DNA of 64,000 bases, taken from NCBI GenBank assembly GCA_973895155.1, contig OZ316891.1, positions 2,161,324 through 2,225,323 on the forward strand, read 5' to 3'. The notes beneath the pieces are model-generated. The model did not search any database and had not been told where the DNA came from. It saw nothing but the letters and a program-made list of their open reading frames with translations. This document shows positions 37,901 to 60,954 of this stretch, piece after piece. The position numbers were made by a program, and so were the translations under genes. This DNA comes from Marsupella aquatica (Eukaryota; Plantae; Marchantiophyta). Each line of letters starts with the position of its first letter. Within the stretch, counting starts at the first letter, position 1.

Positions 37901-39253
37901 CAAGGTATCCTTAAAAAATGTTGTGGCCGCCGTTGCCATCTCCTGCCACCTAGACACCAGCCGTTCCTCCTGGTCAAAAAGCTGACGGATTTTGTTGCTC
38001 ATCGCCAAGCCTTTGAAGGTCCAAAAAAAAATCTTGGAGCATTTTTTTCCATCTGCAATCCACCGCGATTGCAAGACATAATCCATCCATTTTACTTGCT
38101 CTCCATCAAATTCGTGGATCAGTGACTCAACCTCTCTAACCATAGCCTGCGCCTGGCTGTCCTGAACGTGAGATTCGAGATACAGTTGTGCCCGGGCCAA
38201 ATTCTCCCGAAGGATTGATTCCCTCAGCCGTCTCTCAGCTGCTCTTCGTTTGCCCCAGCACCTGTCCATCTTCCTTGCGATCTTGATGCAGTGGGATAGA
38301 GTGTCGTCCGGTGTCAAACTCCTCTGTACACAACCCGCCACCTCCTCTGTCCACATATGGGTAATTTGATCCTGGTATGTTGGTTGGTGTTGGTGTCCTG
38401 TGTTCATCCTGTGTTGGGAAAAATGTTTGATGGCATTAACCGGGTACATTGTTGCACACACAGGAGCATGATCAGATAGGGGAATGTCGAGCAGAATAGT
38501 GGATGTGATGGTGAACTTGGAATTCAGCTCCCCTACCATGGAGTAAATCCGATCAATTCTCCTGAGCACTCTGTCTCCCCTGGGCCCCGTCTGAGTTCTT
38601 GGGTTGTGACGATGCCTCCTCTTGCTATCCCAGCTGAACCGCAGATGTCCAAGCTATTGCTGGAAAGTGTCTTCCCAGTGGAAACGCCTCTTCAAATGTC
38701 TCCAGGCCCTCATCTCAATTCCGGCTACAATACTGGTGGTCCCACCCCGTTGATCAGCTCTACCTTCAATCATATTAAAATCCCCCATGACAATCCAATT
38801 GCAAGAAGGGTCAAGCCGATTGAAAATCTCACGCCACAAATCAGTTCTCTCCCCAGGTGAATTTGGCCCATATATCCCCAAGAACCCAATCTTCCCAGTG
38901 ATGGTGTGGTTGATACACACCCAAACCGCCCATTTACTGGGTAGAACCCCTTCCCCTGTGATGAATGGCACCAATGAATTGTGAATTCCCAATGCAAGAC
39001 CACCCAATCCAGCCACGACCCTCTGATTCCGAATGGCGTGGACGCCATCCACAGCAGGAGCATAAACCCAATGCGCGGCAGGCCAGACCTCATGTTGAAT
39101 TTTTTTCACCTGGCCCTCCCTGAGTTTGTGCTCCTGAATGCACAGGATATCGGGTCTGCATTGGAGCCCCTCCAAATTGGATCAGGCTTGGAGGCGACAA
39201 CTCCGCGATGCCAGGCCCCTCAGGTTGTAAGTTGACAATGTTAGATGGGCCAT
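34948..39253 (-). pseudogene. LINE ORF2: AP endonuclease + reverse transcriptase + zinc finger, broken by stops and frameshifts
   Basis: Starts MAHLTLSTYNLRGL. EN motifs DILCIQEHK, MGDFNM, RRIDRIY, SDHAPV. RT motifs KCPGPDG, RPITLLN, KLDVSKAFDR, RQGCPLSPLLF, FYADD. C-terminal CTRC..HCIWTC and WNIWKDRS. Confidence 0.92.
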
Positions 39254-40913
39254 AGTCTAGTAGGTCACGTCGAATGGATGAAACCTTTGGGTAGATCTTA
39301 TCGAGGGATCCGTGGTTCTCAGCCAAATCCAAGTCCGCGCGAAATTCAGCTGCCAGTGGGTCAGTTTTGGTGTCAGATGATGCCTTCGGTCTGGGGCGCT
39401 TACGAATGGTTACATTCCCCCAGTCCAACAAGATGCTGATAGCGGTGGGAGTCACTGTAAGTGGTGCTTCAATTACTGTGGGATTTTCTTCCACTCCTGT
39501 CTCCACTAAGGGATTGATTGACACTTCTAAAGGAATGGAAAGGGCTGGTACCTCTACTGGTGGTTTCGGGGCCCACACTTTCTTCGGCGGCCTTCGGGGG
39601 TTGCTCTTTGGAAGTTTGGGCTTGGTGCTGCCAGATGAGGGTGTCGAAGTGTCGGTTGAGGCATAGGCCGGACCTGTGTTGCCCTTGCCAACCCCTCCCT
39701 ACCTGGAGTGGCTCACAGTGGTCCTAATTTGACCTCCTGATGGAGCAATAGACGTCGGTGCCCATTTGAATTCTTGCTCTGATTTAGATGTTAGTCTCTT
39801 CCGATGCTTTTTGTTGGTGTAGGTGTCGTCCCGGGTGTCGTGTGCCTTGGATGTAGCTCGGTGTGATGATGAGGTCGTCCTCAGCTCCCCTTGTGTGCCC
39901 TGCTCCTCCGACAAGTCCTTTGAACATTTTGCCAAATGTTGCAGATCCTCTACTTCCCTCTGTTGTTGCTCCTCGGCTCTCGCTTGCCAATAGTCAGCTT
40001 CTTCTTGTGCGCAACGAGCCTCAACTTGGTATTTATGGAAGACCTCGTGATCCAGCCGTTGTTTCTTCACGACGGATGTGAGGGCCGGGTAATGATCAGC
40101 TCCACCAGGGACGTCAGAGAAGAATGCTTGATTACGTAGTGCTTGGGGCCTCGGCTGTATGCAGCTAGACGCCAGATGTCTGTAGGAGAAGCAAAAACAG
40201 CAGCGTAGATTCCGACCAATATAATCAAAGTGAATGGTAGTGACTCTTTGACCACTCAGGCGGAAATTACCTTGCGCCGAGAACACCTTCAGCGTGGATT
40301 CCACAATTGCTGAGATGTGATGTTTTTTAGTGCCCGGTGCCAGCTTCGCGCGTACAAAAGTTCCCACAAGAGCAGTCACGAATCGAATGTATTCATAAGT
40401 GTCTGGGCTGCCAAGCTTGATGTATAGAGTGGCCAGATGTTTGAAATCCACTTGGTTGCAGGGATCAAAAAAGGGAGTGTAATCGTTGACCAACGCAAAA
40501 CGATCCAGTGCCTTGAGAGGTGATGTTTTCAGGAGATTCGCCTTGATGTCATCCCCTGAGTTAGTATCAAATTGCACCACAAATAGCGCATTTGGCAATT
40601 CATCATGTAATGCCAGTTTCGTGTCATTCTCCTGGTTGTAAGCTGAAATCCAGTCCCTAGCCTTGCAAGAATCGAATTCCGATTCGAAACCCAGCACCAC
40701 CTTGTTGCCAAAGATTCTTCGGCTACCGGATTGGAGGATCTCCTTTGGGATGTAGTGTATCACGTTGTTTTCCATTGTGGGATTCACATTCAGTCTTTCC
40801 TTGCCCTTCCGTAGCTGGTCACCGGAGGACGCAGAGATCCTGACATTGCGTGTGGAGGTTGTCGATTTGGCTGATGTTGAGCCCGTATTTCTGATTGAAC
40901 GCTCACTAGCCAT
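39090..40913 (-). pseudogene. LINE ORF1 (gag-like, zinc knuckle)
   Basis: ORF 39699..40913 has CX2CX4HX4C (CCFCFSYRHLASSC) and probably continues in 39090..39578 after a lesion; lies upstream of the EN domain. Confidence 0.75.
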
Positions 40914-41799
40914 GTGGTGTGGACGTGTAACGAAGGACCTAGTGAGACGTTTGGAGGCGATGGCGTGACTGGAGCAACAGAGTTGTATGTGTAGTGTGAG
41001 CTTGATGATACAACTCAGAATGAGACTTCCACGGGTGGTTCAAACACAGCAGCTTCAGTTGATCGAGAATTTTCAGATTAATATTCTGTCTCCTCCAACT
41101 GGGTGCCCAACATTGACAAAAAAGCCACCTGTGGGAAGCGGGTGCAAGCCATGATGGGTACAGCAGTCACAGAGTGTCGCCTTGGTCGAAGTGTGGTGGA
41201 AGGATTGATAGACGATCAGCGTCTCAGGTTGATGGTGACTGACAGAACCTGATGTTTGAGAAGCGAAAACGCAACATCCATTCAAATAGGGCCAAAAACC
41301 TTAGTAAAACATTGAGTTTGTAGTATGCGGGGTTTACTGAACGTTGCACTGCTAAGAGTCGCAGGGTGTGTAATTTTCCAGATTACCCTACTTACTCTCA
41401 AATAGCTATTAATATAAGACAAACTGCCTGGGTAATCCCAAAGGAGCGGTTGGGGACGCCCAGGACCTATTTTGGCACAAAAGGCCAGAGAATTTTGAAA
41501 AAAATATCGTGAACGGTCTGGCAGCCTGTCAGATGGGTAAAAGTCCCCCAGCATTCACTCTTTCTCCCCTGTAGAAAAAGCTATCGCAAGGGGACGTAAC
41601 AACTCTCACTCCCCCCTCTGTCCCCCTTCTGTCCTCCCTTCGTGAACTACGGAGCGCTACATCGCTCCCGCTCTGTCTCTGTCTAGCTATAGTAACTAGG
41701 ACTTGATCTTCGATTCTTCGGTACAATACAGTACGTATGTGCGGATGCTTTTGCTATTAGAGCTCATGGTGAGTGGCATTGAAGAGAACTAGATTTAAA

Positions 41800-42083
41800 C
41801 TCGGAGGTCTCACTATATGGGGACCTCCCCATCACCTGCAATGTTTTTGGGTCTCGGACCCCCTAAAATGTAAGAAAAAAAGTTTATTTTTTAACCCCTA
41901 TAAAGATGGAATTCCAAAAATTGGATTAAAAAGACCCTAATATTCTTATAAGTCTCAAAATTGAATAAAAAAGACCCTATTTTTCTTCTGCAAATTTTTT
42001 TAAGTCTTCTCTCAGAACCAATAAAATGACCCTATCCTTCGTTGCACGTGATATGCCATTTTTGTGGAAGTGAAACCCCTGAG
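41800..42083 (+). mobile_element. MITE, copy 1 (284 bp, 8-bp TSD)
   Basis: Imperfect TIRs CTCGGAGGTCTCACT...AGTGAAACCCCTGAG; exact TSD GATTTAAA at 41792-41799 and 42084-42091; homologous to 61963-62292. Confidence 0.85.
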
Positions 42084-43887
42084 GATTTAAAGTGAAATTG
42101 TGTCATGATGCACTATCAATCTCTTTCTCAAAACTATAGTCTATACCATGACACTATTTGCTGAGTTTGTTTCACCAAGTAAAGGGAAAGGAAAACTTTT
42201 AATGGGAGGGAATAGTCAAACTCTTGGATATGGAAATAGTTGTTGAGCAAATGACATCTCTTCAAAGACATCATGTACAATCATGATTGTGCAATATCCA
42301 ATGAAGAGATACGTCATTTAGCTCTCTAGTGGCTACTTCCACGAGAGAGCTTTCTTGAGCTTTGAGCTCATGCATTGCCCATGCAAATTAATCCATGGAC
42401 CCCATGTTATTTTAGAGGCAGTTATCTAGAAACTGAAGCCCAGATGGACCTCCAAGTTGAAAGAAAAATAAATTCAAAAATGGACAAGTCAATGCTTGAC
42501 ACTTGAAACAGTTGCCAAACTTACCAAGCCAACCATAATTAACATCAATCACAAAATCAGTTACAATGTGAACTACTGTTTAATTAATGTGTGGGTAGCT
42601 TAATTGCCCACTTCAGCAAAACGGTGCTCGACGGTTTCCTCCATGGTATTGAAGGGATGTCGGATGCACTCAAGTTGCATCAAAAGTAATCACTTTTCAA
42701 TTCCTACACGCAGAGAGACGAAGAGAGAGAAATCATCAGTGTCATCAAATCACTCACTTCACAAAATTGTTTGAAACAAAAAGTTTCATGGAACAAATCT
42801 CCAATTGTAAAATTTGGAATTGATCAAAAGCTAAACAAATTTAGAAACTGATGACCACTTTAGTACTTGATAGAATCTCTCAATGCCACACTCATTGGAA
42901 AGCTAGAGAAGATTGGAAACTCATAATCTCCTTGGAACTCAACTAAATCTATCTATGTTAATTTCATTAAAAAGCTAAAAAAATTCTAAAACTCATAATC
43001 TCCTTAGTACTCGATAAAATCTGTCAATTTTAGATTTATTCTCATGGAAGGGATCAACATTTCAAGGATTGTGCAACAAAGATTTCTATTCATGTTAGAG
43101 ATTATAAAATCCCGGGTACTATATATTTTTCAAATTACTTACTCAATTCTTATCGAACAGTAACAATCCTGAGCTCATTAGGACCGATCACCCTATTCAT
43201 TAAAACTGGAATTTCTCTAGTCCAGAAGTTGACCTTCAAATTTCTTATTTTACCCCCAAAAGTTCTATAACTTGTTCCCCAAAAACATACATTTTAGTGG
43301 CCAAATATACACTTTTTGAGGTCTAAAATTATAATTCTAATGCCCAAATTATTAATTAAATAATTCAGTTATCAATTATAAATATTTATTAATTAAAAGA
43401 TAATAAAGTGTTCTTATTATATATAATATAAACAATGAAAAAATAGAATAAGACAATATAATAAATTCAAATGACCCGTGATAACCAAGTTACACAAACA
43501 CGAAAGGTAAACCGGTAATGTATTATAAAAGTAAAAAACCTATTTTTATAGGGTCGAGACCACGTCTGCCCCAATGCAGGCTCTAGATGGTTTTGACCGG
43601 TTGTTGAATGTATATCAATTACTATGTAAAAATCTATGTCAAGATTATCTCGACCCAAATGTAGGGTCCACATAATTTTGACCCGTTGTTGAATCTATAT
43701 CTCTAGCTATTCCCTTTGTATAGGGTCAAGACCCAATAACCTTTTTCTGAGAACATATCTACAAGTAAAAGAGGATCAACAACATCTAGACTCAAATGGA
43801 TAGTACGCATAGCTTCACTTTTTTTTGAGTAAGAATATGTATACCTACAACTCACATTGTAACTGTTCAGTGTAGGGTCGAGATAAT

Positions 43888-44945
43888 CTAGACCCAAATC
43901 TCATGCTCCTCCACCCCGCAGAATTCATTTGAGCAAGTAAATCTAGACCCTGACGGGTCATATTTCATATCGCGATTGCAAAAATCGAGAGGCTTCCTAT
44001 TCCAGAACTTCATGGTGAGGTCCCTACACCTCAAGACTTCCAAAACAAATCCCCGATGATTGTCTCTATAGGGTCCTGTGTACTGATATCCAATTAACGT
44101 CTTTGCAAGGTCGTTGATCGCCTCCTCCGTCAATTCCTCCATTGGTGGTAATTGTTGCACTTCATTCTTGACATCCCAAGGAATTTCGTCCGCTGTGACA
44201 TCCAAGACTGTATGGATAACCGAATGAACCCATACCATACTACCCCACCGCTCCGTCAACAACGCATAAATGGCAGCTTGTTGATCTCTGTCCGCTAAAA
44301 TATTTATCATAGACCACTTTGGATGATTGATAAAAAGGTAGTGCTGAAGATTGAAGGCATGATACAATTTCCTGAGCAGAGGCCATAGTATTTCTGGAAA
44401 GAATGTATCATCCGTGGAGTGATGCAAAAATGAGGAAGGAAACAACCCACAATTCTCTGGATTTGCAAATGCCTTCATTGGAGTGTCATCAAGAAGGAGT
44501 GTATTAGTTTCGTTGTATAATCCACCATAACGTTTTCAAACCACCCTCAAATCCTTCAAATGAATATTTGCCTTCCCATCGGTAATGTCAGGCCTCTGGA
44601 TTCCAATATCGAATGTATCTTCTTGTGTGAGAATAAACTTGAATTGCTCTCGCTCTTCTTGACTAAAGATCAAATGAATCATTTCATCCGTCCTGGGTTT
44701 CCTTGCACAAGTCCAAATGGCAACATCAAATAACGAAAAAGCTACGATTAAGAACTCGTGAAGATGGGGTCGCTCAACATACATAAAGTTAAACCCTCCA
44801 CGTCTCCCCCAATGGACACCCTTGACACTTGTTGCACTACAGCGTGGTCCGGAACTTGGCGTTTTGACAGAATCCCAACACATTTTGTTGAGGACAAGAA
44901 TCAATAGCTTCCGTCTGATCGGACCGTGAAGTGGAGGCAAGGGTC
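43888..44945 (-). pseudogene. FCP1/NIF (HAD-fold CTD-phosphatase-like) domain; last exon of the cargo gene
   Basis: RKLLILVLN, ERPHLHEFL..AFSLFDVAIWT, HLKDLRVV*KRY, NTLLLDDTPMKAFANPEN. ORFs 44536..44940 and 43888..44478 share one frame with a single TGA. Phase-1 intron 44946-45050 (GTATGA...TTTGCAG) links it upstream. Confidence 0.8.
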
Positions 44946-46466
44946 CTGCAAAGAAGGAACTCCAATGTTAGAATTGTGGGAGATAAAACAAAGGAATGCT
45001 TGAGATGATCTCGAGCATCACAAGTGAATGAACAACAGTCAACGTCATACCTATTGTTGGTTGAAGGTCAGTAGTTGAAGAAATCTCAAGGCATCTTTGG
45101 AGATTATTGTCGACGCACTCCACAACTGGTAAGGGCCCGCCTATTTCTGTGAAGGTAGACATAATCATTTAGACGGTTGAATTTCAGGACTGTTCAAACT
45201 AACTTGGGTTTCAACCTCACGTGCTGAAAGACCCAAATTCATCTAGAAGGTTATCTCCTAGTTGGTTTTGGATGTCCAAATTTATCCCTCCGGGAAGGGT
45301 CTCAACAAGAGCTGGCTCAGACCAAACTGACAATAATTTGAACTTATCCTTCCTATACTTTCTAGGTCGAATAACCTTCTCAGACTGCTCTATAGAGACT
45401 TGTTGACCTTTTGACGGTCCATCAGTCCAAACATAATGAGTAGCACTTGCTTTGAGTGATTTGTAACCAGTTCTACCAATTTCAGTCCCCGGTTTCCTAA
45501 CAAAAGGGAGAATTACGGGGCTTCCAGTAGAAGAATCTGTGAAAACAAGCTTATTCTCTGAAGCGCAAAACATTTGGTCCAAGGGAGAGGACGATGCACC
45601 TGCCTCATCCTGAGGGGGAGTATGGCAGCCACTAGCTTTCTTAGTAGAGAAAATCTCATCCAATTGAGGAGGGCTTGGAATTGGTTGGCTAATTGCATCG
45701 TGCAAGGTGGATTCCTAGCCAACATCCAAGGTTGAAGACTGTTGTTCACGTTGTGCATCCCCAAGGTCACCCGATGAAGGAACACCTGGAACGTCGAGAT
45801 CATCTCGAGCATCATTTCCAAATTCAGGCAGTATTTCACCCTCCTCTTCCATGTAGCTTGTGATTTTTGGGCCCTCCGTTTTGCGATGCTCTAAATTCTC
45901 CGCAAATACTTCCTCATAAACACTGGCTTCCACTGGAGCTATGTCTAAGGCCGCCTCTTCTATTACAACGAGGGGACCGGCAGTAATTTCCTCAGATGGT
46001 AACGGCTCCTTGGGTGGCACATATAAAACCTGCTTGTTGTCATGAAGGAGCTGAGCAAAGGCTTCTGTGAATTCCATCTCTTGAGCTGTGTCCGAATACA
46101 CAAAACAATCCCGACCAAGAATGACACAAGCTTTCAATCTCTGTCCTCCAGAGAAGAAATCCAACACTGTATGACCTGGGCACGAGAAATAATCAACAAG
46201 ACGCTTTGTCATTCGCAAAGGCTTTGCTCTCGCATTTACAAAGCCACCACACCGACCGACCATCTCATAGGATGGGGCCATCTTCTTCAAAACTTTGACA
46301 TCAACAGTGGATTCATCAAGCTTCTCTTTCCCCTTTGATTGGTCTTTGTTGTTCCCAGTAGGGGCCTTCAAAGGCAAGACTGTGAAGTCTTTGTCCCACT
46401 TCTCACTGTAGTTCCAAAACGCATAAAAGTCATCAAAGAAAATTTGGGACCAGTCTGGTTCCTCTT

Positions 46467-49400
46467 TGTCGCACCCCTACCCTGGGCCTTAAATCCGGGT
46501 TAGTGTTGTGGTGCGACCTCGACCACCAGTAGGGGTGAGGGTTCGGGCAAGGAGGTGTGTAGTGACCTTCAATAGCCCTAAGTTGGGCTAAGCCGCTATA
46601 CTTACTGGTATAACACTCGCATAATTCGTACTTGACATAGGTATATTTATTTTCCACCGCTGGAATTTTCCCTCAGTTAGTGACGCGGACTAACTCCCGA
46701 CTTGGGGCTTTTCAAGCCATCGACGTGACAGGACCTTGTGACATGCAATGAGTGGAAATCCCTACCATTAGTCCGCACCCGGTACATCCCTTAAAATGGC
46801 GCCTTTGCCCGGACAAAGCATACACACAACACCAGTTACTCTCAGAAACATTAGGGGGAAAAGACTACATTTACTCAGCGAAGCATCAGTTTACATGGTT
46901 GACTCGACTTCAAAGGGGGTCAGCAGGCCCAACGGCAGTCGATGCCCAGTCTCTACGAGGCCCTGCCTCGCACTTGCCCAGCAAGCTCGACTCTGGCTCT
47001 CACTCCTTGGTACGCTCTGACCCTACTCAGGCCGGGACTCCCCGTGCCTCGCCTTTCTTCTGCTGAGATAACTAAGCCTTCTCCCCCTTCCCATCGTGGA
47101 AGGGGAAGCCTAAATACTACCATAGCGGAAGAGAACCGGAGGATACTACCTTCCGGGGCACTACCTACTGACTAACTAACTGCTGACTACTGGTCGCGCT
47201 GCACTGACCGGTTGACCGTCGACTACGAGTGTGCCAACCGGAATGGCAGCGGCCAAGCCTACTGACAAACTCTAGTCCGTTGATGGACTCCATCCTACGT
47301 TGGCTGATCCTAACTGATCGGCCCTAATTCTTCCTACTGCCGCTAATCGGCGCCTAATGACAGTCATTCTGTCGTTACGCCTAACTAAAAGATGCCGCTG
47401 ACTTAACCGCCTCGCGCGACGCCTGCTTCTACCCTTCGCTAACTACCCCTTACGTGTGTGCAGTGGTTGGACCAGGGCTGGTCCCCTTGTCGGGGCGAGA
47501 CCTCGAGCCGCCTTGATCAGAGGTGGGCCCAGGTTTTCCCCGCTGGAGGACGAGCAGGGTGACGCGGTCCTGCAAAGCCTTGTTGTCCCGTAATGCTTCC
47601 TCCGCCTCGTTTGCAGCTTCATCGGCTTCAGTCTGGAGCCGCGCCACCTCCAAGTTGAGCTGGTCGATGGCGTCGCGATGGACCTGGTCCTGCGCTAGCA
47701 ATTTATCTCGTTTGGCGGAGAGACCAACCACCTGCTGTGCTGCCTGCAGGAATTGTTTGTTGAGGTCGGTCAGGCTGGTAACCCGAGCCGAAGATTTTGA
47801 GCGTAATTGAAGCATGGTGTCGTCCAGCTTCTTGAGTTTGGCCTGCGCTCCGCTTAACTCCTGGGTTAGTCCGTCCCTCTGTTCGACAGTGCGGACTAAA
47901 TCCTCGCGGCGGGTCGTTGCCTCCTCCTCGAGGTGCTCTACCAGCATCTGGAGACGCCCGATCTCATTCCCCTTCGCCATGAGTTCTTCCTCCAAGCGGC
48001 TGACGATCCGTGGTTGGTGCTCTAACATGAAGAAGGCTGGCTGAAAGTACGCCGAGACTTGTTGTCCGATGTATGTCGCCAACTCCCCAGACATAGTCTG
48101 GCTAAACTTCTGGACCAGGTCGTAGACCATGGTCCCCGGGGCTACTTGGTAGTCCTCCATCCTCTCGGGTACCGGTGGTTCCTCGGCAGGGGCAATGAGC
48201 TCCTCCGTAGTCAGTGCTGGGGAGGGGAAGGTTTCTTCAGGTGGTGGAGGGATTGGGGGTGGTTGTACTGCAGGTAGCGGAGGCTCAACGGAAGGAGGCG
48301 GTGGAATTTCCACAGGGGGCGGTTGCGGAGTATTAGTCGGGGCTTCCGGCTTGGGGTTTGTCCGAGGGACAGTAGTCCGCGTAGTCGGGGTTGCCTCCTC
48401 TTGGGCGGGGGTGACATTACCCGGGGCTGAGGTGGCCGTATTCTTTCCTCTGGCCTCCCGCCGTGCCTTGTACCAGGCGAGGATAATGGCGATATGACTT
48501 CCCAAGTAAGTCTTCCCTCCAATAGCCATACCACCCTGAGCCCGCTTCAGCTCCCTCGAGAATCTTTGGTAGAAGAATTGGGCCCAGTTTCGTCGTTTGT
48601 ACTGTTCCACCTGCACGATCGTGCAGAGGGAAATCTCAGATCGTGGCTCAATCATGTGTAGGGTAGTCCGTATGAAGTTAAGCCGCTCCATACAGGTTAA
48701 GTTGGTGCACGCCCCCTGCTTGTATCCGTTGTCCGTCTTACCCTCGGGTTTGAAGTGCGCGGCGTATACTTCTTATCCCGAATTCGGATTTCCACCGGCG
48801 CCGGTCTGGTTGGTAGGCCAAAAATTTGCGTTAACCGATGCTCTATGAGTGATAAGGTCTGCCCCGAAACCTTGGTGGTCGACGCATCAGTGTCGAAATT
48901 GGAGATGAACTCACAAATCTCCTTCGGCCCGGTGGCGCACGGCCTCCATAGTAAGTGGGCGAACCGCTCCAACTGATGCTCCTTGAGATAGTCCACATGT
49001 TCGAGTTTCTTGATCGCGATCCAGACTACCTCGGGGACGCGGATTACCTGTAATAAGTTGGACTTCGGGTTATCCGGGGGCCGTCGGGTCTGGTTGGTCG
49101 GGGGGTTTGCTGGGGCAGGTGCAGGCGCGGCGTCGGTCCGTGTTGATTCGGGGGCCATCGTAGTCCTTGACCGCTTACGAGGACGCTGTTCGAGTTGCGG
49201 ACTAGCTCGCTCGGAACCCGAAGAACACTCCGCGTTGATTACTGGACGAACTTGGGACTGGTTTGGCGGTACTCCGGTGGTCATCGGTTGAGGCGCTGGG
49301 GTAGCCATATCCCAGTTGAAGGCGTTGGAGCTTTCCCCGAGGAACGTGAGATTACGCGCCGCTTCCCGTTGTTTGCTGATGTCTTCTTGGCGCTTTTCGG

Positions 49401-50303
49401 CTGCGATCTGCTGGTCTAGGTACCCCGGAATCTTGTCGAACTCCGCTTGAGTAAGCCGCTGGTTGCCCTTCAGCTTAAAGAACTTAGCTGGAACCTCAAG
49501 AATCGCCTCTGCTACCGATCTAAGCCCTTCCTCGCTGAGATATAGTTCGGTGATGTAGTCTCGCAACTCGTTATAGCTAGAATCCCTGGTGATGGCTGTC
49601 CTTTCGCAATTAACCAGTGCTACCTTGGTTACCAGCTTCGCGTACCTTCGTTCGTAAGCGGCTTTCTCGGGGCAAGAGTACCAGTAAGTCTCGGAGAACT
49701 TAGCACCTACCTCGCCAAACAAGGTCCAAAATCCCAAGGCTGTGAGGGTCATACTAACCTCGTAGTCCGGTTTGTTGCGTCCACTTTCCCACCTGGCTGG
49801 TCCTTTTTCGCGGAGGCCTCGCTCGTCCTGACTAAATCTGGCCACATTCCGCTCTTCTCCCTCGATAATTTCCTCGTAAAGGTCGACTGGATTCAATCAA
49901 AAAGGCGAGCGGATGGCAGCGTCCGTGAATTCCAAAAAGGTAAACATGAGTGAATGGCCCACAGTGCCATCGGCTCCTCTCTTATGGGGGTGCCAGGATG
50001 AGCCCGAGCGTGAGAAGGTCAGGCCGTTTGGTCATTGATAACGAGTTGAAGTCGGCGCCTCGGTCCAAGCGTGATTCTTCTAACTGATTTTTACTCCGCT
50101 GCCGCCACCATACCTCGGTCGTGCGTAATAATCCCTTTCCTGAACTCGTAATTATTCGGTTATCTTAACCTACTCCTAATCTAATCATAATGGCAACTTG
50201 GCGGCTATACGTGCTATTCTACGCTATGGCTACGGTCCTAATGACCGTATAAGTCCTAATCTTCGACCTGGGTTTGGTCAAGTGACACGTTACCCGTGTC
50301 ACA
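46467..50303. mobile_element. LTR-retrotransposon-derived insertion (solo-LTR-like, 3837 bp)
   Basis: Ends TGTCGCAC...GTGTCACA (TG..CA); exact 5-bp TSD CTCTT at 46462-46466 and 50304-50308; no second LTR copy and no gag/pol seen. Confidence 0.85.
47450..49896 (-). pseudogene. Retrotransposon extra ORF (~810 aa, one frameshift near 48770)
   Basis: ORFs 48697..49896 and 47450..48691. EICEFISNFD..TKVSGQTLSL..LTQIFGLP and NWAQFFYQRF resemble Gypsy accessory/plant-mobile-domain-type ORFs, followed by Pro-rich and coiled-coil regions. Confidence 0.65.
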
Positions 50304-51081
50304 CTCTTCACAACAAATTCCCCCAAAGATGATTGAGTCTCGGGCTCCAATGAGAAAATCTCCCTCCTCCTTGGGCAGCTGATCACGGTAGTAGCTCCCG
50401 TACTCCAGCTTCGTGTGGAATTTCTTCTCACGACGAATCTTTTCAAAGGCACTATGAATCTGGCCTATCAATGGGCCTTGACGGACAAAAAAGATTACTA
50501 AGAGCTCCGTCGAGTTCGCCATCTGCAAACAATACTCCAGCAAGACAAATTTTTTGGCATCTGTCCATTGCCGTTGTCGAAGACGACCAAAATCGACAAT
50601 GGAGAGTGGGCACGTCCTTTGCACCGAGTCAACAATCTCAGGCTTCATTGTCCTCATCAAATTATTGCTAAAAAATGTGCGATAAAGAGTATCCTCCATT
50701 GAAGGCAACCCGCCAAATACCTTGCAATATATCTGCTCAAGCCTAACAATGAGACTTTGCGGAAATGGGTCTTTTGGCTTATTTCTTTTTAGGAGGTTGG
50801 AAATCCAAACCTCTCTAGCAAGTTGTCTAAGTTTTGGCAACTCACCACGATCCATAAATGCAGGCAAAAATTGAGTTAGCTCAAACCAAGTGAGTGAATT
50901 GGCAAACCGATCCGGATACTTCAAAATGAAGTACTCCACAATTTTTGCCCTCAGCTTGGTCATGACTTTGAAAGTATGAGCCATATCACTCATTGATTGA
51001 ACATCAGATTTGTTGGCTGGGTCTTTCTTCAATAAAACCTTCTGTTGTTGAACGGTAGTAAAAACTTTCAGAATGTCATCA

Positions 51082-52463
51082 CTACTCGATCAGGTCTCCT
51101 TCAAAGCATCTAAACAATGCCGGCGTAATCATTTTTGTTGTCCGGGATTTCCCATTTATTTTTGAACCTAACTCCCCTAGACCATCCGGAAGAAGTCCCT
51201 TGACCCAATCGATGCACATTTGTCTCCAAGTTCGGAAGAGGTTCTCATCCGAAAACAACAACCAAAAAATATTCCTCAGATCGGATTTTCCAGTTGTTAT
51301 TTTGGCAAGGGCCATAAAATCCTGATCCAAACAATACAAAGAAAATCTGAGGCTCAAGACAATCTCGAGGTAGAATTAAGGAACTATGGTAAAATTTATG
51401 GGAGAATACATGAAGATAAATCAAATACAGAAACTTGACCTCGAGGCTCGAGACAATCTTGAGCTAGAAGTGGATTTGAGTTTGAATTTACCTGGAACTT
51501 TTGATGATCCGTTAGTCTATTGGACCCAATCACGGGTCTCTCCGGACGGCCACACTCGTCAAACTATCGACGGGCATGGACCATAGTATCAAGAAAACAG
51601 GACTCATACTCCATGGTCTTATTAACAATATTTGCCCTTTGTGAGTGTTGAGCAAGTATTGTTCTTGGAGTTCTGTCCGAAAGAATTTGTGACTTTTGAT
51701 ATTGCAGACTCTTTGCGACCTCCTTCAACTTTGCATCGCTCTTAGCCCAACCTATGATCCAAACAGCTGCCTTTGCCGAGTGTTGTCCACTGATTGCAAG
51801 GAACTGCACCTTCTTATTCTTAATACCCCACTCAAACTTCTTTCGATCCTCAGTAGTATTCTCATAATGGAGCAACTGCAAACTCTCTCTTGAATACGGA
51901 ATTAAATCCGCCACAGCTGGTACCATTCCAGGGTTTCTAACCATGGATTTTGTGACCTCCATGGCATGGTCTTTATTGAACATCCTATATACCAAAACTG
52001 CAGACGACGAATCTATACTAGTGATAGGAATGTCAAAAGTTTCATTCATGCCAAATGTGTAATACTCCTCAATCTCCTTAAGAACTTCGGCTCCTTCCTT
52101 AACGCTCTTTTCTCCCGGAGCATCTCCTGGAGTGCCATCATCATCAGTATGTGCATTCACACCCGAGGAAGATGCCGGAATGAGATCTACCTTGGGCGGC
52201 GCGAACTTTTTTTGAGGTGGAGCCTTCTTCGCTTTGCTTTCGGGTTTCTCATCTCTCTTCCTCTTTTGAGACACCTTTGCTTCCTTTTTGTCCAAACCGG
52301 ACGTCTTGTCTCCCGCAACTACAGATTTCAATTTACCTGTTTGTCTCCGATGAGACAGCACCCACTTTTTACAAGCATCCTCATCAAATTCTCTGGCTCC
52401 AAACACAAAATCAAGGGATATGGATTCAAACTCCCCCAATTTGGATTCCGACATTAGTCTCAA
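51082..52463 (-). pseudogene. ParB/Srx-like N-terminal domain of the cargo gene
   Basis: DIPITSID...YRMFNKDHAMEVTKSMVRNPG...FLAISGQHSAKA...AQHSQRAN follows the ParB pattern (ipi..I / R..f...l.el..Si...G / y.ii.G..R..A / ...EN). TAG at 51564-51566; phase-0 intron 51322-51491 (GTAAAT...GATCAG). Confidence 0.6.
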
Positions 52464-54005
52464 AACCTTCCACGTGAAAGAGTTGTGAATGCATCATCAC
52501 GATCAAACCCATACTTTTGACAATAAAGGAATCCAAAAATTATGTCCGCTCCAGATATAGGAGTATCTTCTAGCAAATTACTTGTAGTAAAACCCTCGGG
52601 GAAGAACCCCATTGATATCACGCTCAGTTGTTTCCTGGCTGCACGTTCAATGTTAAGATCGCAAGAGTAGTTTTTGGCGTGAAGTCTAATTAGAGCCCAC
52701 TTCCCTATCTTGTGGTTCTCCACCGTCAAAACCATGTCCTTACCGTTACTCGTCACAATAGAAACAACAGGCCCTAGAAGGCTGCACACTAGAGGATCGA
52801 CTGATGGAGACCTCGTCTTCACACAAATAATAGTTCCTTCCATGTCTTCAGTTTCAGCAAGCTCAATGGCCCAACAGAATCCAAATAAACCCTATCCAGG
52901 GCAGGAAACCTCAATTGCATGTTCATCTTCGACTACCAAATTAGGCGATCCCAATTTTGCACCTGGTATAGCCAAAATGTAGCAATTGTCAGAAATATGT
53001 ACTACAAAACCAAAAAACAAATAGGTGGTTCGAGATGATCTCGATCTTCCTTTTAAGTTTAATAGTCTGACATGTTCCAATGCCATTTCATCCGTGGAAT
53101 TTAAAAAGAGATTTCAAACCCAAGAAATCTAAAAAGATAACACAATAGTTAGGAAACACAATAGGCTCGAGATGATCTCGAGCCACCATCTGTTTAAAAG
53201 AAAAAGATAAGGGCTCGAGATAATCTCGATCCTCATATATATCAGTTGAGGTTTTATTCCATTGCATATCATGAACCAGTCAAATTTAACGAACAACATT
53301 TTCAAGAATGATCCAATGTCACCTATTCGACCACATTCAAAACCCTCTAACTCAGTGGTTTGTCATCTTCACAAACGAGTTGGAGGACTAAGAAAGTGGT
53401 CCAAAAGGCAAGCTTGGATCACAATGAAAAGGATATTAGTAATTCAAGTAGACGACATGGAGTCCTTCCAACTGGAAGAAATTGGCCAAGGGATACGAAT
53501 GACCATAATGGAAGATGGTGAGGGATATATTTGGCTTGAGACGATCTCGAGCCTAACATGTCAAACGAGTGATCCAAATATCATATTCAACAATGAACAT
53601 CATATTCAATCAATGATTAAAATTCACTTTCTCCATTGACTTCTAATACCCACAAACCCGTTCGGATGTCAATGATCAGAACGAGTTGGAGGGTACAGAA
53701 GTCCTTGGAGGAAGGAAATTTTAGATATTTTGGATATATGATGTTTCACTTTTGAAGGATAAGCTAAGGGTTTCCAACTTGAAAAAACTCACTAGGTCAC
53801 ATGCAGGAATTGCATATTGGCTCGAGACGATCTCGAGCCTCATGCCACTTACATCAAATGCAAAATCAATTGATAGATCACAACTTTTGAAGCAAAGTAT
53901 TGCAAAAAACATCAATAGGCTCGAGATGATCTCGAGCCTCAACTGCATCCAAGGAATCCAGAAACAAGTGGACCAATTGAAGCTCAAGACGATCTCGAGT
54001 TAAAC

Positions 54006-54150
54006 CTGAACAGAACAAAGATGATGAATTACGTTTAATGGTGCGATGGATCTGATGCGCTGAGTCTAGATGGGTCTGAAGCTCTTCGCCAACGGTTGCA
54101 AGATTGTACTCAACGAAGTCCTCCTTGGAGAAATCTACAACAGTCGACAT
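54006..54150 (-). pseudogene. Probable first coding exon of the cargo gene
   Basis: GCCATG start, MSTVVDFSKEDFVEYNLATVGEELQTHLDSAHQIHRTIKRNSSSLFCS, then a CAG|GTTTAA donor followed by motif-rich intron-like DNA. Confidence 0.45.
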
Positions 54151-54197
54151 GGCTGGTGAAGAGAGGAACGTACTACGGGCTGAGAACTTAAAAACAA

Positions 54198-54356
54198 ATC
54201 TCGAGCCTAAACAGAAAATCTCGACCCTATCGAAGCTTGAGCCTAAACACAAAATCTTGACCCTATAAAATCTCGAGGAAGAAACCTAATCTCGACCCTC
54301 TGCAATCTTGAGGCTAATACAAGGATCTCGAGGCAAGAGCGCGAAACAATCTAGAG
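54198..54356. repeat. Array of nine ATCTCGAS half-sites
   Basis: Starts at 54198, 54218, 54234, 54254, 54270, 54289, 54305, 54325 and 54349 (mostly alternating 20/16-bp spacing). Confidence 0.8.
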
Positions 54357-55518
54357 GCAAGGAGGCAAGGGATGCGAGGAGGCGAGGAGGCAAATGTGAA
54401 AATGGGGAATTCAAAACCCCTGAAGCCACTATAAGCCCCTCGGGGGTCGGCCTTGGCCGTGCCAAGTGTGCCAGGGCTCGTGCAGGCTCAGGCAGGCTGC
54501 AACCTGCTGGGTGCGTACAGTCATTATTACGGTCACACGTGTTATCATTATTGTTATCCGTACTTCAGCCCTGCCGCGAGTTTAGCCATGACACAAGTTC
54601 ATCCAAGCCGTCTTAATGGCCTTTTTGTCTGTCAGGGTTTTATATATTGCTTCTCTTTGGTCTCCAGCGGGTCATTCTTCTCATTTCGTTTCATTGCTCG
54701 CTCGTTTCTCCCTCTGCCTCTCTCTGCTCTCTCTCTCCCTCTCCCTCTCTTTGGCTCTAGATTTCTGCTCTGATCTCTTTCTGTTGTTCTTTTCAAGCCT
54801 GGTTGTGGACTCTACGTTTGTGTTTAGGATATTTTGAGAAATTCTCATTTTAAGCCCTGAAGGAGGTCTAAAATAATTGAGCTCCTATCTTTTAGAAAAC
54901 CAAACCTTTTCAGCTTATACTAGTGTCGGTCAAAATCCATTTGGAAGCCTTTTCCCTCTATTTGATGGCCTTTTAGAAGCTATTTCTCAGTGTCTGGAAG
55001 TAAACTAGGAGCCTACTTTCTTAATTGCACCAAATCATTCCTCTAGATCATCTAGAACCATTTATATGTTCTTATTTTGGGTGGCTTATTATTCATGATA
55101 GTTTCTTTGTCAAATACAATGTCCTTTTTGGCTTGAGATCATCTCGAGTCATAAGTTTGATCCACAAACTTATTCACTTTTGCCTTCTTTCTAATGGTGC
55201 ATTCAGTTTTCCTTCTTATAATTGAGTTTGTAGAGAGTCGGAGGTATAGAATCTGAATTCAGTATTTAGTGAGATTTCATATTTTACCTCGAGATCGTCT
55301 CGAGCTATTTAATACTTCTGAATTTTTACATATTGGAGTTTTTGGTCCCTCTTCTACCTCGAGATCGTCTCGAGGTAGAAGAGTTTCTTATTTTCTCTAT
55401 CACACAATTTTGTGGGATAAATTTCTACACTTGGGTTTTTTGGTTTGTTTTTGTAGTCACTTTACCTCGAGATCATCTCGAGGTAACTACATCCAACAGT
55501 TTGGACCACGTTTTCAAA

Positions 55519-58500
55519 ATGGGGATTTTCTTTTGAGGGGACAAGGTTTGCCTCGTAATCGATGGAGTGGAAGTTGCTTGCGGGACCGTCCTCAAGGTTG
55601 ACCCGGGTGACTCAGTGTGTAATGTTGATTTGGGAAGTAATCGTATAGGAGTTCTCATTGAGAAGTGCTATGAGGGATCATGGGAAATTCCTTACCCTTT
55701 GCCGCCGATCAGGACCCTGTTTGATGCTGTCGACTCCTGCATTATTTGGGATGCGTCTTTTGCATATTTGAAGTCACAGTCAACTCCAGCAACAACACAA
55801 ATGGATGCCTCTTGTTCTACAAAGGATACGGTTCCCGGTTTTGTACCAGACAAATCTTCGGTGGGAAGTTTTGGAGACTTGATTATATCTGGCGATGAAG
55901 TTGAGCTATGGATCGGCAATCAGATTGTGGCTCGTGGATTTGTGTTCAAGACGAATCCCGATGAGACCTGTCACAATGAAAGACTTGGCACTTCTAGGAT
56001 TAGTGTGAAAATATGTGAAGTTTTTCAAGGAAGGGAGAGGTTACCCTTTCCTCACAATGGAGCCGATACCGTTCAGGAAGCATTGGACACTTTTGTATTC
56101 TGGAATTTAAAGGATGTTACTCGGAGGAGTTCTTCCCAGGATATACTAAACGACCTGTCCACACGGGATGTTTTTTCAAATTATAATTTCAAGGATTATA
56201 GTTTGCGTTCTAATTGGATGACCGAGGAGGTGGAATTGTATGCTGAGGATAATTGGACCAAAGTGGGGGTTGGCATCATCACAGTTCCTTTCGAGTCAGG
56301 TGCAATTGATGATGATGTTCTTGGACCAGATCACGTTGGGGTTGCTGTCACACGCGTGATTGACCCTCTATTTTTCCCAAATATCTCCCCAGGAGTGCCT
56401 GGTCTTGTTAGGTGGGCCGTCCGTTCACTTCTGCTAATATCAAGGGGTATTTTTCTTCTGGATCTCATTGAAGAGGTTTCTCCAAAACCAATTATTGATG
56501 GTCGAGATCATCTAGAGGTAGATATGAAAGGTGACACTGAGTTTTCGAAGCGCCCGTATAATTTCATCAAGAGAACGAAGGTCAACCCAGATGAAAAAAG
56601 GAAGAAGCACTTGGAGTCTCGGGCGATACTGAAAATCACAGAGGAGGAAATCGACTCCATCCAAAGAGAAGGTCACTTGTTGTAAGTTGAAGTGTTGCCT
56701 CAGCATGCCGAGAGAAGACCTACAGGCGATAAGGAGGGAATACCATGGGATGTCAAGCGACAACAAAACCAGTCACATTCTCACTCTTTTTGGCTGTAGG
56801 GAGAAGGAAGTGGAGACAAAAAGATATTTCGTTGTAAGAAGTAGACTTGTTTGCAAGGGTGCTATTATTAAAATGCATGAATTCAGCACTGCCAAGTATT
56901 ATGATTACAAAAATCAATATGAAGCAGGTTGCACGGTTGGATTCCACGGAAACAAGGGTTCACACAAGACACGGGGAAGCACCTTGCATGCTCGTGCTTT
57001 GTTGGAGTCCATTCTAACCCAAAACGGAGAACCCATGCCACATCTTCCCTATGGAGGGTCTCACAGGACTGACACGGTTGAGTACAGACTTCCATCTTGT
57101 TTCACGAAGAAAGAGATTTTTGAGGAGGTATACTCAAAAATGGAATCAGATGGCTACGTGAAGGTGAGTGAAAAAACTATGTATAAACTCTGGAGTGAGT
57201 CCTTCATGAATTTTGACTTTCACAAGGGAAGTGCATTTGCAAAGTGTACACTTTGCACTGATTTCAAAGATCAGTTGATGCGGGAGAAGAGAAAGAAAGA
57301 GCGTTTAGAGATTGAGGAAAGAAGAGCTCGCCATCTTTGTGAGCAAATGTCTAGGAGATATGTTTACTATGCTCATAGGGTTCTTGCGAAGAAGGATCCT
57401 GAAAACTATCTTTGCATTATACATGACAAGATGGACCAGGCCAAGACATGGATCCCTAGGTTGGTCCCCACTCCTAAATCATTGTCTGGTAGTGGTCAAC
57501 CGCTCCCCATTGCGCTCACTGGGATGTTGACCCATGGAAGGGATCCCGGAGTGTATGCTCACTTCAGTTTCACTGGGCTTTGGCCGGGAGATGTAGACTT
57601 CACAGTGACATCATTGGCCAAGTGCCTTAGAGATCTGGAGGATTACAAGGGGGACAAATCTGGAGACCTCCTTGAAGGATTATATTGGGCTGCAACGAGG
57701 CCAATTTTTCAATCTCTTTTGGACTTTGAAGCGTTTCTCGCAGGTTACTTAGAACCCAAAAAAGTCTCAATTGCTAGATTTCAAGGAGCTGAAGATGACC
57801 AAGACGACTTTGGTGTTGATCCCAAGGCTACGTCTACCTCTTTCAAACCATTGCCAAGGCACCTGACCTTGCAAATGGATAATTCAGGGAAAGATAACAA
57901 AAACCAGTACGTGATGGCATTTTGCAATGAGCTTGTTAGTAGAGGGATTTTTGAAACAGTGCAGATGTCGTTTCTCATGGTTGGTCACACCCATGAGGAT
58001 GTCGATGCATTGTTTTTGAAAGTATCCAACCAAGTGAAGTACAAGGAGGTTTCTACCCTCTTGGGATTGATGGCTGAGGTTTGGGAGTGTGAAAGCATTC
58101 ATCCTGTCCCACGGTTGATCCAAGAGGTTGAAGAAATCATCCCATTCCTTAATCGTTACATTGAGTTTTTGAAGAAGAGTTGTAAGGATGAGACCTCTAC
58201 AACATATCGTGAGCGGTTTCCTTTGGTGAAATATTGGGAGATGGTGGTGCAAGTATTATCTGGGGAGCTTACAATTGAAGGGGAGGTAGAATACAATTAG
58301 CATTGACATATGAATTCTGGCCAAAAACCAACCACGGAACTGGTAACAAGGTTAATAATACAAGAACCTCTGAACCATTGGGGGAGCCTAGTAGTAGTAC
58401 ACAGAATCCACAAATGGTGGAGCTTCAGAATGAGTACCTGGAAGAGATGGAGGAAGAGTTAGGATGTTTCCGACTCACAATATAATCAAGCTGCAACATT

Positions 58501-58996
58501 TGTTGGCGCTCGACACGAGCGAGAACTTGCACGTTGGATTCCTCTGCAGGACATTCAAGAGGGTCACTTTGTATTTCTCCTTCCAGAGGATGAATGGGAA
58601 AAGAAGAATGGGAAAGAACGTTTCTGGTTGGTGAGAGCTTTGGGTGTTGTGGACCCAAACCATGAAGTTCCTTCAGGAGACTTGTAATGCAATGAGAATT
58701 CTCCTACTAGTACACGGTATGCTCCTATGTTCCAAGTGCAATGGTGGAGGCCTAAACATGGTAAGCATGATGCATCGGATCATGATGTGTGATATTCACG
58801 TTGCTTTCAGACCACTAAGACTTGGGAGGTGGATCCTGGGTTTGATAGTGCCACTGAACGTTGGAAATTTGCTAATTCTGCTATGTATGGATTCAAGTCA
58901 CGCTCAAGAGAAGAAAATATAATTGTTAGAGGTTTGACCATTCCCAAGAATGTTTTGAAAACACTCAAAACCTACATGGAAGGGATTGTTGAGTAA
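55519..58996 (+). pseudogene. DDD-type transposase (Sola1/DUF7869-like) with three N-terminal Tnp1/En/Spm-like domains
   Basis: ATG at 55519 (TGA at 55534); frameshifts near 56680 and 58300. Motifs AKCTLC, IHDKMDQAK, LQMDNSGKDNKNQY, FLMVGHTHEDVDALF. C-terminal FWLVRA...FQVQWWRP; stop at 58994-58996. Confidence 0.8.
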
Positions 58997-59022
58997 GTCA
59001 AATGTTTTTTAGTAGTCACTCT

Positions 59023-59118
59023 GTCAGAGTGAGGGAGTCTATGTCATTTAGTTTGGAATTAGACATGTCAGAGTGAGGGAGTCTAATTATGTCAATTAGT
59101 TTGGAATCAGACATGTCT
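59023..59118. repeat. ~43-bp tandem duplication
   Basis: TGTCAGAGTGAGGGAGTCTA..TGTCAwTTAGTTTGGAATyAGACA occurs twice. Confidence 0.85.
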
Positions 59119-60954
59119 TTAGTACTTACTGTTGGTTAGTACTAAGTAGTATATCTATTTAAGTAACTAATTATTATAATATTTTGGGATACTAGTTTGT
59201 ATAGGTGGAGGTAATTGGACTTGGATGCCTTTATAATATCAATACAGACTATATATTACATGAAGTCTTAATATCCATGATAGGATGTGAGTGCCTCTTA
59301 GTACTGTCTAGTAGTAAACCTTAGTTTCAACTCAAGTTGCTTAGAATGTAACAAATTACTTGTCTGAATGGATAGTAAGCCAGGTATCATTCAAATTTAA
59401 TATATTAAATGCTCTCAATTAGTAACTAAGTAGAAGGTTAATTTAGCTAGCTAAGGGTAGAGATCATATTATTTGAAGCTTTACTAGTTATATGGGTAGA
59501 GATCATATTGAAGCTTTACTAGACACTTATATTCTATTAGTCAAATTGAATCAATGTAAGTAAGTTCTACTTCTTATCCAATATATTTTACATTATTATC
59601 ACCCAAATGTTTTTCTTTAGAATCCAAATTAATATTTAAATTTCTCCTATGTTCAATCTTGATCCCCCAAATGTACAACTCCCACTGCCCAAATGTACAA
59701 CTCCCACTGCCCAAATATATATTTTTTGGTGCCTAAATGTCCAAAGATCAAAGAATTTTCCAATTTTAATGAATAGACTGATACCGTCTCTTCGAGATCT
59801 TTCCAATGCCATATTATATGTGAGTTTTCATTATGATTTGACTCAACAATGTCAAATCAAAAATTGCTGCCAGGAAATTTATGTTTTGAATAAAATCAAA
59901 ATGTAAATTAAATTGTACGTTACTAGGAGCAGTTTTACCTCAATCTTTTTGTCTTTTGATTTGCATGTCAGTTTTTTTACATTCTTTTTTACGGCACGAC
60001 GTCCCAATTTTTATAGCAAAGTTTCCACAAACACGAATGCAGAAGTTAATTTTATCCAAAAAAGAGTCTCTTCCTGTTTGCAGCGTGCCATGATCATGTG
60101 ACATGCTGTGGACCCTGGAATTTTGGAAATGACATGTTAGGCATTACCACGTGTACTGTTCACATGTTCCAATGAAGAATTCATGTGTGAATCAATAATA
60201 TTATGTTTCATATTTATTATTGCAAGCACTATATGATCTTCAGTTGGGGGATGACTACCAAGACCTGTAGGAGCCAAGCTCTATCCAAAATAGGTGTTAT
60301 CAACGGAAATGAGATACAATTGTAAAAATCAAACTATGAGGTGAAAGAAAACATTATAACCTCAAATTTATAGAATATTGTGTCATAAATATATTCATTC
60401 TTTAAAGTAAATCAGGTCATCAATATTAAAATAGAGAATATTCCTAGAGTAATCTATTTGTAAACTAGAATTATTTATATTATTTAGTCTAATATCACAT
60501 GTGGCACCTCAAAATATAAACTAACTTAGCCTCCAAAAGATGTCATCCGTTTTGTCTAACATGCCCTGCTTTTGAACAACCCTTCTTACTTATAAAACTA
60601 CATTTGTATAATTTTGTGGTTGTTTCAATTAATTAAATTACAAATATTAGTCACAAATTGATAAATAGTACTTTTCCTTGAAATGATAAATAGTACTTTT
60701 GAAATGCATGCATGTGTTTTGGGGTTTCATTAAGGTGTGCTAGACATCTACCCTAGGGTCTAGAGCGGGTCTCGAGTTATTATGTAACCATAGTTAGTCT
60801 AGTCGTAGTTAGGTACTTGTCGATCAAGTTAGTTTGGATAGTTATGTTACTTTGTATATGGACAAGTCTGCACGTAGGAGTTAAAGAGCTTTGTATATGG
60901 ACAAGTAGGAGAGCTTGTGATCCAGAGACTTGGTATGATCTACACATCCTCGTA

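Follow-up and report, generated by a model that had tools for sequence, protein, structure and literature searches.

A dispersed 17-bp palindrome of a Sola1-like transposon in Marsupella aquatica as a putative docking site for an element-encoded ParB-like protein

The window analyzed here, 64,000 nucleotides of contig OZ316891.1 from the liverwort Marsupella aquatica (assembly GCA_973895155.1, positions 2,161,324 to 2,225,323 of the forward strand), carries a Sola1-like DNA transposon in which a 17-bp palindrome, STCGAGA-N3-TCTCGAS, is scattered in and between two divergent genes. The accessory gene, with a predicted ParB-like domain, lies on the minus strand and the transposase gene on the plus strand (Table 1). 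The element is a decayed copy from a multi-copy family, with stops and frameshifts in both genes, and it sits in a higher-copy repeat. Its limits are set by terminal inverted repeats (TIRs), a target-site duplication (TSD) and steps in read depth. One contig of sequencing run X3 holds the empty-site joint (43184 to 59786), which was seen in one of the four runs, and read depth rises outside both ends, so the element lies within a more abundant repeat. Alternative ends with GAC/GTC termini have no TSD and conflict with the empty-site joint, and were rejected. We take DUF7869 and the candidate Asp motifs of the transposase core as putative marks of a Sola1 transposase. The ACCG on both sides and the 25-nt TIRs fit the 4-bp TSD and the 11-1124-bp TIRs of Sola elements (PMC10741241).

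A sequence-only reading of the window had listed 19 copies of the palindrome, and all of them were recovered, 55041 only at three mismatches. Perfect matches number seven in the window versus none in 100 shuffles. When up to two mismatches are allowed, 19 matches are found versus a shuffle mean of 0.35 (maximum 3), and these comprise the 18 other listed copies and an unrelated-looking match at 60760. In a scan with a profile trained on the 19 copies, whose ranking is circular for these 19, the copies score 20.8-35.1 bits, followed by 54340, 43581 and 59496 at 11.8-13.7 bits. These 22 element sites outrank every site outside the element, where the best reaches 7.8 bits, while the best site in the insertion at 46467-50303 reaches 2.8 bits. 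A blind search for repeated spaced palindromes found the same word 18 times in the element, no spaced palindrome repeated three times in the insertion or the right flank, and just two three-copy words in the 43-kb left flank. The palindrome is thus confined as had been described, with 19 of 19 copies within 43187-59782, none in the 3.8-kb insertion and none in the 47 kb outside the element. The arms at 55349-55383, which extend beyond the core, are also present.

Table 1 Features of the Sola1-like element, its genes and its palindrome copies (positions in the window)
Feature	Position	Strand	Basis
Sola1-like DNA transposon, 12,754 bp without the insertion	43187..59782	.	TIRs, TSD, depth steps
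Left TSD, ACCG	43183..43186	+	right copy 59783-59786
Left TIR, 25 nt, 88% complementary to 59758-59782	43187..43211	+	
Right TIR	59758..59782	-	
Later TG...CA insertion, 5-bp TSD CTCTT, no palindrome copy	46467..50303	.	
Palindrome copy located 3' of the left gene, polarity exception	43638..43654	+	pattern and profile scans
Palindrome copy across the stop codon of the NIF-like frame	43877..43893	-	pattern scan, frames
Palindrome copy in the predicted intron 44946-45050	44999..45015	-	pattern scan; intron predicted
Palindrome copy in frame, acidic linker (ARDDLD), polarity exception	45793..45809	+	pattern scan
Two palindrome copies (51353, 51447) in intron 51322-51491, right after the ParB-like domain	51353..51463	-	
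Seven palindrome copies (53029, 53166, 53214, 53535, 53821, 53920, 53983) in the leader or first intron of the left gene	53029..53999	-	
Tandem lone half-sites, sense SSSTCGAGATY	54198..54356	-	repeat and profile scans
GC-rich and CT-repeat region between the genes	54380..54780	.	sequence
Five palindrome copies (55041, 55132, 55288, 55358, 55466) ahead of the transposase ATG (55519)	55041..55482	+	
Palindrome copy in frame, variable transposase linker (GRDHLE)	56501..56517	+	pattern scan
Accessory N-terminal domain, family unassigned, common to homologs	52463..52990	-	43% identity to P0103
Predicted ParB/sulfiredoxin-fold domain, near-invariant GQHS motif	51492..52106	-	model, fold matches
Accessory middle region, no family match, frameshifted here	50304..51321	-	homology to P0113, P0169
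Methyltransferase-like segment (VLDFFSGG, degenerate motif I)	46000..46461	-	PF01555 E 3e-4, below curated cut-off
NIF/FCP1-like phosphatase frame, on the accessory-gene strand, possibly fused to the accessory gene	43888..44967	-	PF03031 E 6.7e-7, above cut-off
Transposase N-terminal part, three TNP1/EN/SPM-like repeats	55519..56682	+	homology to P0028
Transposase core (DUF7869) and broken C-terminal part	56633..58976	+	PF25273 E 8e-38

The copies are concentrated between the two genes, where 12 of the 19, together with eight lone half-sites, fall in 53029-55482. Seven copies (the 53029-53999 group) precede the conserved coding start of the accessory gene, a further five precede the transposase ATG, and two are in the intron directly 3' of the ParB-like domain. 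A predicted intron contains one more, and two fall within variable coding linkers. The remaining two mark the 3' end of the left gene or lie beyond it, with degenerate copies and half-sites near 43638, at 43551, 43581 and 43723. Since many homologous frames end at the intron 51322-51491 and P0113 continues through it, this intron is backed by homology, whereas 44946-45050 is predicted from its GT/AG ends and frame alone. The earlier view that the copies sit mostly in introns and leaders accordingly holds for much of the set but not for 45793 and 56501, which are in frames, or for 43877, which overlies a stop codon. Within the intergenic cluster, an array absent from the earlier list (54198-54356) holds eight half-sites above 9 bits and one weaker, spaced 16-24 bp apart in a single orientation, and is built from a 36-bp tandem unit. 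Lone half-sites as a whole number 18 in the 12.75-kb element versus 18 in the 47.4 kb outside, with three in the insertion. The adjoining GC-rich and CT-repeat region would, judging from its sequence, be a promoter common to both genes. No helical phasing was found among the 12 central copies, and in the 3.2 kb next to the right end of the element no copy is found at up to two mismatches, with one degenerate copy at 59496. An origin of the copies as ends of an independent micro-element of the miniature inverted-repeat type, each with its own TSD, was also considered and rejected, since flanking duplications of at least 4 nt accompany 7 of the 19 copies versus 31% of random positions, and those of 5 nt accompany 1 of the 19 versus 12%, no more than chance.

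Relatives of the element carry palindromes of the same or other kinds. The transposase has 99 homologs, the named ones belonging to liverworts, a moss and a bivalve, a range that would suggest a bryophyte-like host. A transposase scan gave 30 loci (L001-L030). L001, whose transposase is 64% identical over the best segment, carries the word twice within an open linker of the transposase gene, in a different reading frame and once in opposite polarity. Since these copies occupy another place and another frame, the constraint acts on DNA. Upstream of the gene, a 20-nt GCTCRAAC palindrome occurs in L003 (two copies), L004 (two), L005 (three) and L007 (one), and L006 holds nine copies of TTGGCCATATGGCCAA (shuffle maximum 0); no class pattern was repeated in L002, L008, L009, L010 and L011, which have little upstream DNA. 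In the distant group L012-L030, 10 of the 12 scanned loci hold 3-11 copies of CTAGYGGCCRCTAG versus 0-2 in shuffles, and the 46-bp unit of L023 also includes TCGAGA-type half-sites. Besides the window and 12 proteins, the 32-row transposase tree takes in 19 of the 30 loci; the 11 loci left out are mostly near-duplicate or fragmentary. Each of the four palindrome classes falls on one side of a branch, with three changes versus a shuffled mean of 7.1 (0/200), a comparison in which kin share labels and which carries a long-branch warning. Other repeats were seen at these loci: 46-bp tandem palindromic units upstream (L023 at 2071-2860, L012, L013, L019, L028 and L030), units of about 113 bp near the right shared limit in the same six, and, in L013 (4340-5920), a degenerate array of telomere-like CCCTAAA repeats that lies upstream of the element.

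When the loop is read on the gene-sense strand, it is TCA, TCG, TTG or TTA in 17 of the 19 copies, and the polarity of the loops and its two exceptions (43638 and 45793) were reproduced. These gene-sense loops point to CTCGAGA-TCR-TCTCGAG as the ancestral word, since worn by CpG decay. For 17 of 19 the naive p is 7e-4, an underestimate given the flanks that neighbouring copies have in common. The polarity itself is real, yet a functional meaning tied to the direction of transcription is weakly supported: since neighbours share flanks and one of the two L001 copies violates the rule, no special function is necessary, and the polarity most likely comes from a few founder sites that were copied and from the asymmetric central base pair. 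A match between polarity and gene direction would also be in keeping with copies that act as RNA stem-loops in leaders and introns, the triloop hairpins of the sequence-only reading. Single copies fold at -16 to -28 kcal/mol, 55041 shows a two-sided stem change, and flank pairing within copies is 46 of 76 versus 37.4 by permutation (p 0.03). However, this excess fades past the core (offsets 1-4, p 0.08; offsets 5-10, p 0.41), and the arm changes, many of which are post-insertion decay, comprise four wobble-compatible and five disruptive ones. The eight lone half-sites, all on the same strand, are unable to pair, no Rfam match was found, and one of the two L001 copies has the reverse polarity. 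We regard a role as RNA as very improbable.

Other genomic copies of the family hold more perfect versions of the word. The copy comparison listed 40 of 50 differences, of which 24 were retained (more than half of the depth, at least three of the four runs) and 16 dropped, three of the dropped ones lying in the 55288 site of one low-depth contig. Six of the 24 majority differences fall in sites or half-sites, and all six shift towards the consensus; two further restorations in other copies are at 51356 and 51361. Since CpG decay after insertion is 4/33 in sites versus 3/47 outside, the sites are not spared, and the retention of motif CpGs that had been suggested as a check gives way to decay at least as fast as elsewhere. 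High-depth contigs carry two copies of the word parted by unrelated spacers, which suggests that the word is common to sister families. These comparisons bear on whether the copies are a functionless by-product, in which slippage, tandem duplication and gene conversion would have multiplied one founder palindrome. The 36-bp tandem unit of the half-sites, the common flanks of neighbouring copies, the palindromes inside longer tandem units of L003, L005 and L023, and a diverged contig of run X1 with three changes inside the 55288 copy would all suit such an origin. On the other hand, the copies persist as a word while most of their flanks are unrelated to each other, the word recurs in L001 at another place and in another frame, and high-depth contigs hold two copies with unrelated spacers between them. 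We consider a pure by-product very improbable.

The accessory gene offers a candidate reader. A model of 51567-52106 (180 residues) has a predicted local distance difference test score (pLDDT) of 93.7, and its fold matches include PadC (Z 8.2, rmsd 3.4 over 100 residues) and KorB (Z 8.0, rmsd 2.8 over 94 residues), as well as Noc and ParB by Foldseek. Although these scores are modest, the top rows all belong to the ParB/sulfiredoxin superfamily, and the Atlas lead for the domain is to ParB_N and DUF3723 clusters. The accessory protein is thus predicted to contain a ParB/sulfiredoxin N-terminal fold, which is interrupted in this copy by one in-frame stop. A profile search of PDB sequences returned low-complexity matches only. 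For the middle region no longer relatives and no usable Atlas match were found. The methyltransferase-like segment is 34% identical to P0160, in which ParB-like and methyltransferase-like parts are joined in one chain; a single-sequence model of P0160 (pLDDT 32.9) was too low for use. If this segment were active, the palindromes could be modified by an N4-C or N6-A methyltransferase that the element encodes and that would mark the element as self, and the earlier reading had likewise named methylation targets. The PF01555 similarity and the presence of TCGA and GATC in the word agree with this idea, and so does the Ectocarpus accessory protein that is predicted to be a methyltransferase (PMC12477816). 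However, no DPPY-type motif IV (D/N/S-P-P-Y/F/W) was found in the three frames of either window-gene part or in P0160, two sequences that are both possibly decayed, and motif I is degenerate. Judged by these motifs, the methyltransferase-like part is probably non-catalytic, and with motif CpGs that are not spared, self-methylation appears highly improbable.

The second candidate reader is the product of the transposase gene. The N-terminal repeats of the transposase are 38% identical to P0028 (E 8e-75), which matches PF03017 (TNP1/EN/SPM, E 2.2e-8), although the N-terminal frame of the window itself has no Pfam match. The core contains a candidate acidic triad (HDKMDQ, LQMDNSG, GHTHEDVD), and its C-terminal extent was read from the sequence. 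This protein, or a TnpA-like splice form, could bind the sites and activate or autoregulate the element, as Spm TnpA does, and several observations speak for it. The palindrome class follows the transposase tree, the repeats are related to the TNP1/EN/SPM domain, and sequence-specific regulation at clustered motifs is described for transposases and for TnpA (10.64898/2026.08.24.746577). Since L012-L030 have arrays on both sides of the transposase where no ParB-like gene was detected, the transposase stays a serious rival. However, the sites are not subterminal, with none at up to two mismatches in the last 3.2 kb and two near the left end, while TnpA binds termini. The tree cannot part the two candidates, because co-inherited genes would share one tree. 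We therefore keep the transposase gene product as a tentative, rather unlikely reader.

Taken together, the confinement of the word to the element, the frame-independent constraint, the arrays of unpaired half-sites and the clade-specific words favour recognition as double-stranded DNA by an element-encoded protein, which we hold to be probable. Recruitment of a host transcription factor would fit the clustering of sites at the putative promoter and in leaders, but no copies lie near host genes in the 47 kb outside the element and the word differs between transposon clades, which makes it extremely unlikely. Dimeric protein-binding sites, proposed in the sequence-only reading, are the best supported of its suggestions, with a candidate element protein as the presumed reader. 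We give an even chance to the palindromes being docking sites for the ParB-like accessory protein. Three points favour this protein: its fold is found in readers of dispersed palindromes, the sites gather in its own leader and first confirmed intron and not at the element ends, and inverted-repeat arrays adjoin ParB-like genes in an unrelated transposase superfamily. In the proposed mechanism, a dimer of the accessory protein would bind two TCGAGA half-sites in inverted orientation, and the sites would have multiplied through local tandem duplication and settled where the sequence is free, in leaders, introns and variable linkers. Binding around the shared promoter may then regulate the element or, like VANC in VANDAL elements, shield it against silencing by the host; both consequences are suggested by analogy with VANC and TnpA.

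Several observations weigh against the accessory protein as reader. The CTP-binding GxxR arginine motif of ParB is not present in it: among 70 homologs, 50 have GQHS, 14 are without the motif, 6 have other variants and none has GQHR. We take the GQHS position to correspond to R117 of KorB. No helix-turn-helix or other DNA-reading domain was found in the accessory protein by family searches, and the motif CpGs are unprotected in this copy. The ParB-like profile had no match in L001-L030, even in loci whose flanks reach 10 kb, although L001-L011 are too short upstream to be informative, and L012-L030 are decayed, with ends and TIRs that were not found. The pairing of sites with an accessory gene consequently comes from one element, because no locus with both the accessory gene and its flank was obtained. 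The palindrome patterns and class labels were chosen after the loci had been viewed, and the label of L009 was given on one palindrome that fails its pattern. Searches beyond these loci gave little: no locus with the ParB-like domain was found in metagenome contigs or viral contigs, one weak match was found in prokaryote genomes (L062, E 7e-4), the transposase scan of viral contigs found none, and 31 single matches of the exact 17-mer in viral contigs, which form no clusters within the retrieved loci, were taken as chance.

The proposed system can be set beside known ones. In KorB-OB of plasmid RK2, a palindromic operator with an asymmetric centre acts near or far from promoters, and R117 has a role in CTP binding (PMC11790492). 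The predicted fold (KorB Z 8.0) and a palindromic site with an asymmetric centre are shared with KorB-OB and ParB-parS, but here GQHS replaces the CTP arginine motif and no helix-turn-helix was found. Since the CTP motif fails, we treat the system as operator-like and not as a ParB clamp. Closest in layout is Sola1-1_Ec32 of Ectocarpus, whose accessory gene, opposite the transposase strand, encodes ParB-like and N4/N6 methyltransferase domains, and whose accessory protein is proposed to bind and modify its own element (PMC12477816). Large size, Sola1-type character, a 4-bp TSD and an opposite-strand gene of this type are common to both, a likeness of organization. On the other hand, its TIRs are 282 bp versus 25 bp here, the string 'palindrom' is absent from its main text (PMC12477816), and the present element differs by a missing motif IV, an NIF-like frame, TNP1-like transposase repeats and a plant-like host.

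More distant parallels bear on the sites. In Plavaka (EnSpm) elements of Bostrychia, the ParB-like gene PAG3 has adjacent inverted repeats that are proposed as binding sites (10.1101/2025.02.11.637652). A ParB-like accessory gene with nearby inverted repeats is common to both systems, but the Plavaka repeats form tandem arrays beside the gene, whereas the palindromes are dispersed here over leaders, introns and coding linkers of both genes; its partner is a 2-oxoglutarate (2OG) oxygenase and not a methyltransferase-like protein, and the transposase belongs to another superfamily. In Arabidopsis VANDAL elements, the element-encoded accessory protein VANC reads family-specific motifs in anti-silencing (PMC5735166). 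The palindromes resemble them as short family-specific motifs in introns and non-coding parts that are multiplied by tandem repeats; the VANC motifs, however, are 8-9 nt and not described as palindromic in the accessible text, no kinship between the two proteins was seen, though no search aimed at it was made, and anti-silencing is carried over here by analogy. TnpA of Spm binds the termini, and its motif clusters are clade-specific (10.64898/2026.08.24.746577); clade-specific motifs and a TNP1-like domain in the transposase gene are shared, but the sites are central here. Our literature search, beyond which most subscription papers and bioRxiv supplements lay, found no description of this palindrome or of land-plant Sola elements that carry a ParB accessory gene.

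The surroundings of the element are rich in repeats. The joint from 46461 to 50304 bypasses the later insertion in all four runs. This insertion is about ten times deeper than the host element in run X1 and has two long minus-strand frames (47450-48772 and 48697-49896) with no convincing Pfam match; no long terminal direct repeats were found in it, and it is possibly a very long solo long terminal repeat (LTR) or a non-autonomous element. The high-copy repeat split by the transposon extends over about 42000-43186 and 59783-60060, with a short tandem repeat at 42827-43037. Further to the left, a broken element resembling long interspersed nuclear elements (35454-41039, minus strand) has endonuclease (PF03372) and reverse transcriptase (PF00078) frames with a 446-aa frame before them, and an F-box gene (PF00646) at 23937-25430 on the minus strand is divided into two frames by a stop. 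A long inverted repeat at 2490-3467, with 247-nt arms of 91% identity and nested shorter arms, may be a fold-back element or a hairpin RNA locus, and inverted repeats 4.9 kb apart (1730-1836 and 6744-6849) are possible ends of another TIR element. Two short regions on the plus strand (12533-12835 and about 20500-20950) end in similar lysine-rich tails, in one case after a long glycine-codon repeat; they resemble genes of heavy-metal-associated proteins, and the first has no Pfam match.

The element is a land-plant-type variant of an arrangement with ParB accessory genes that has already been described in algal transposons. A bolder extension, which we think unlikely, would see in it a land-plant transposon with a bacterial-style ParB/parS system. 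The accessory protein would load at oriented parS-like operators and spread over the shared promoter, while a dead methyltransferase fold and a C-terminal domain (CTD)-phosphatase-like module would shield or license the element against host silencing. Such a sequence-specific anti-silencing system would have no kinship with VANC or TnpA, and its site would differ from one clade to another. In two papers on algal genomes, ParB-like accessory proteins are proposed to bind the transposon that encodes them, in passages that report no test. To this proposed self-binding the locus described here adds an exact candidate site, together with natural variants of it, half-sites that stand alone and alternatives that differ by clade. 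Should the reader be the transposase, TnpA-like self-regulation would be extended to Sola-like elements. Should it be the accessory protein, a prokaryotic partition fold would have been turned into a eukaryotic device of self-recognition and possibly of anti-silencing.

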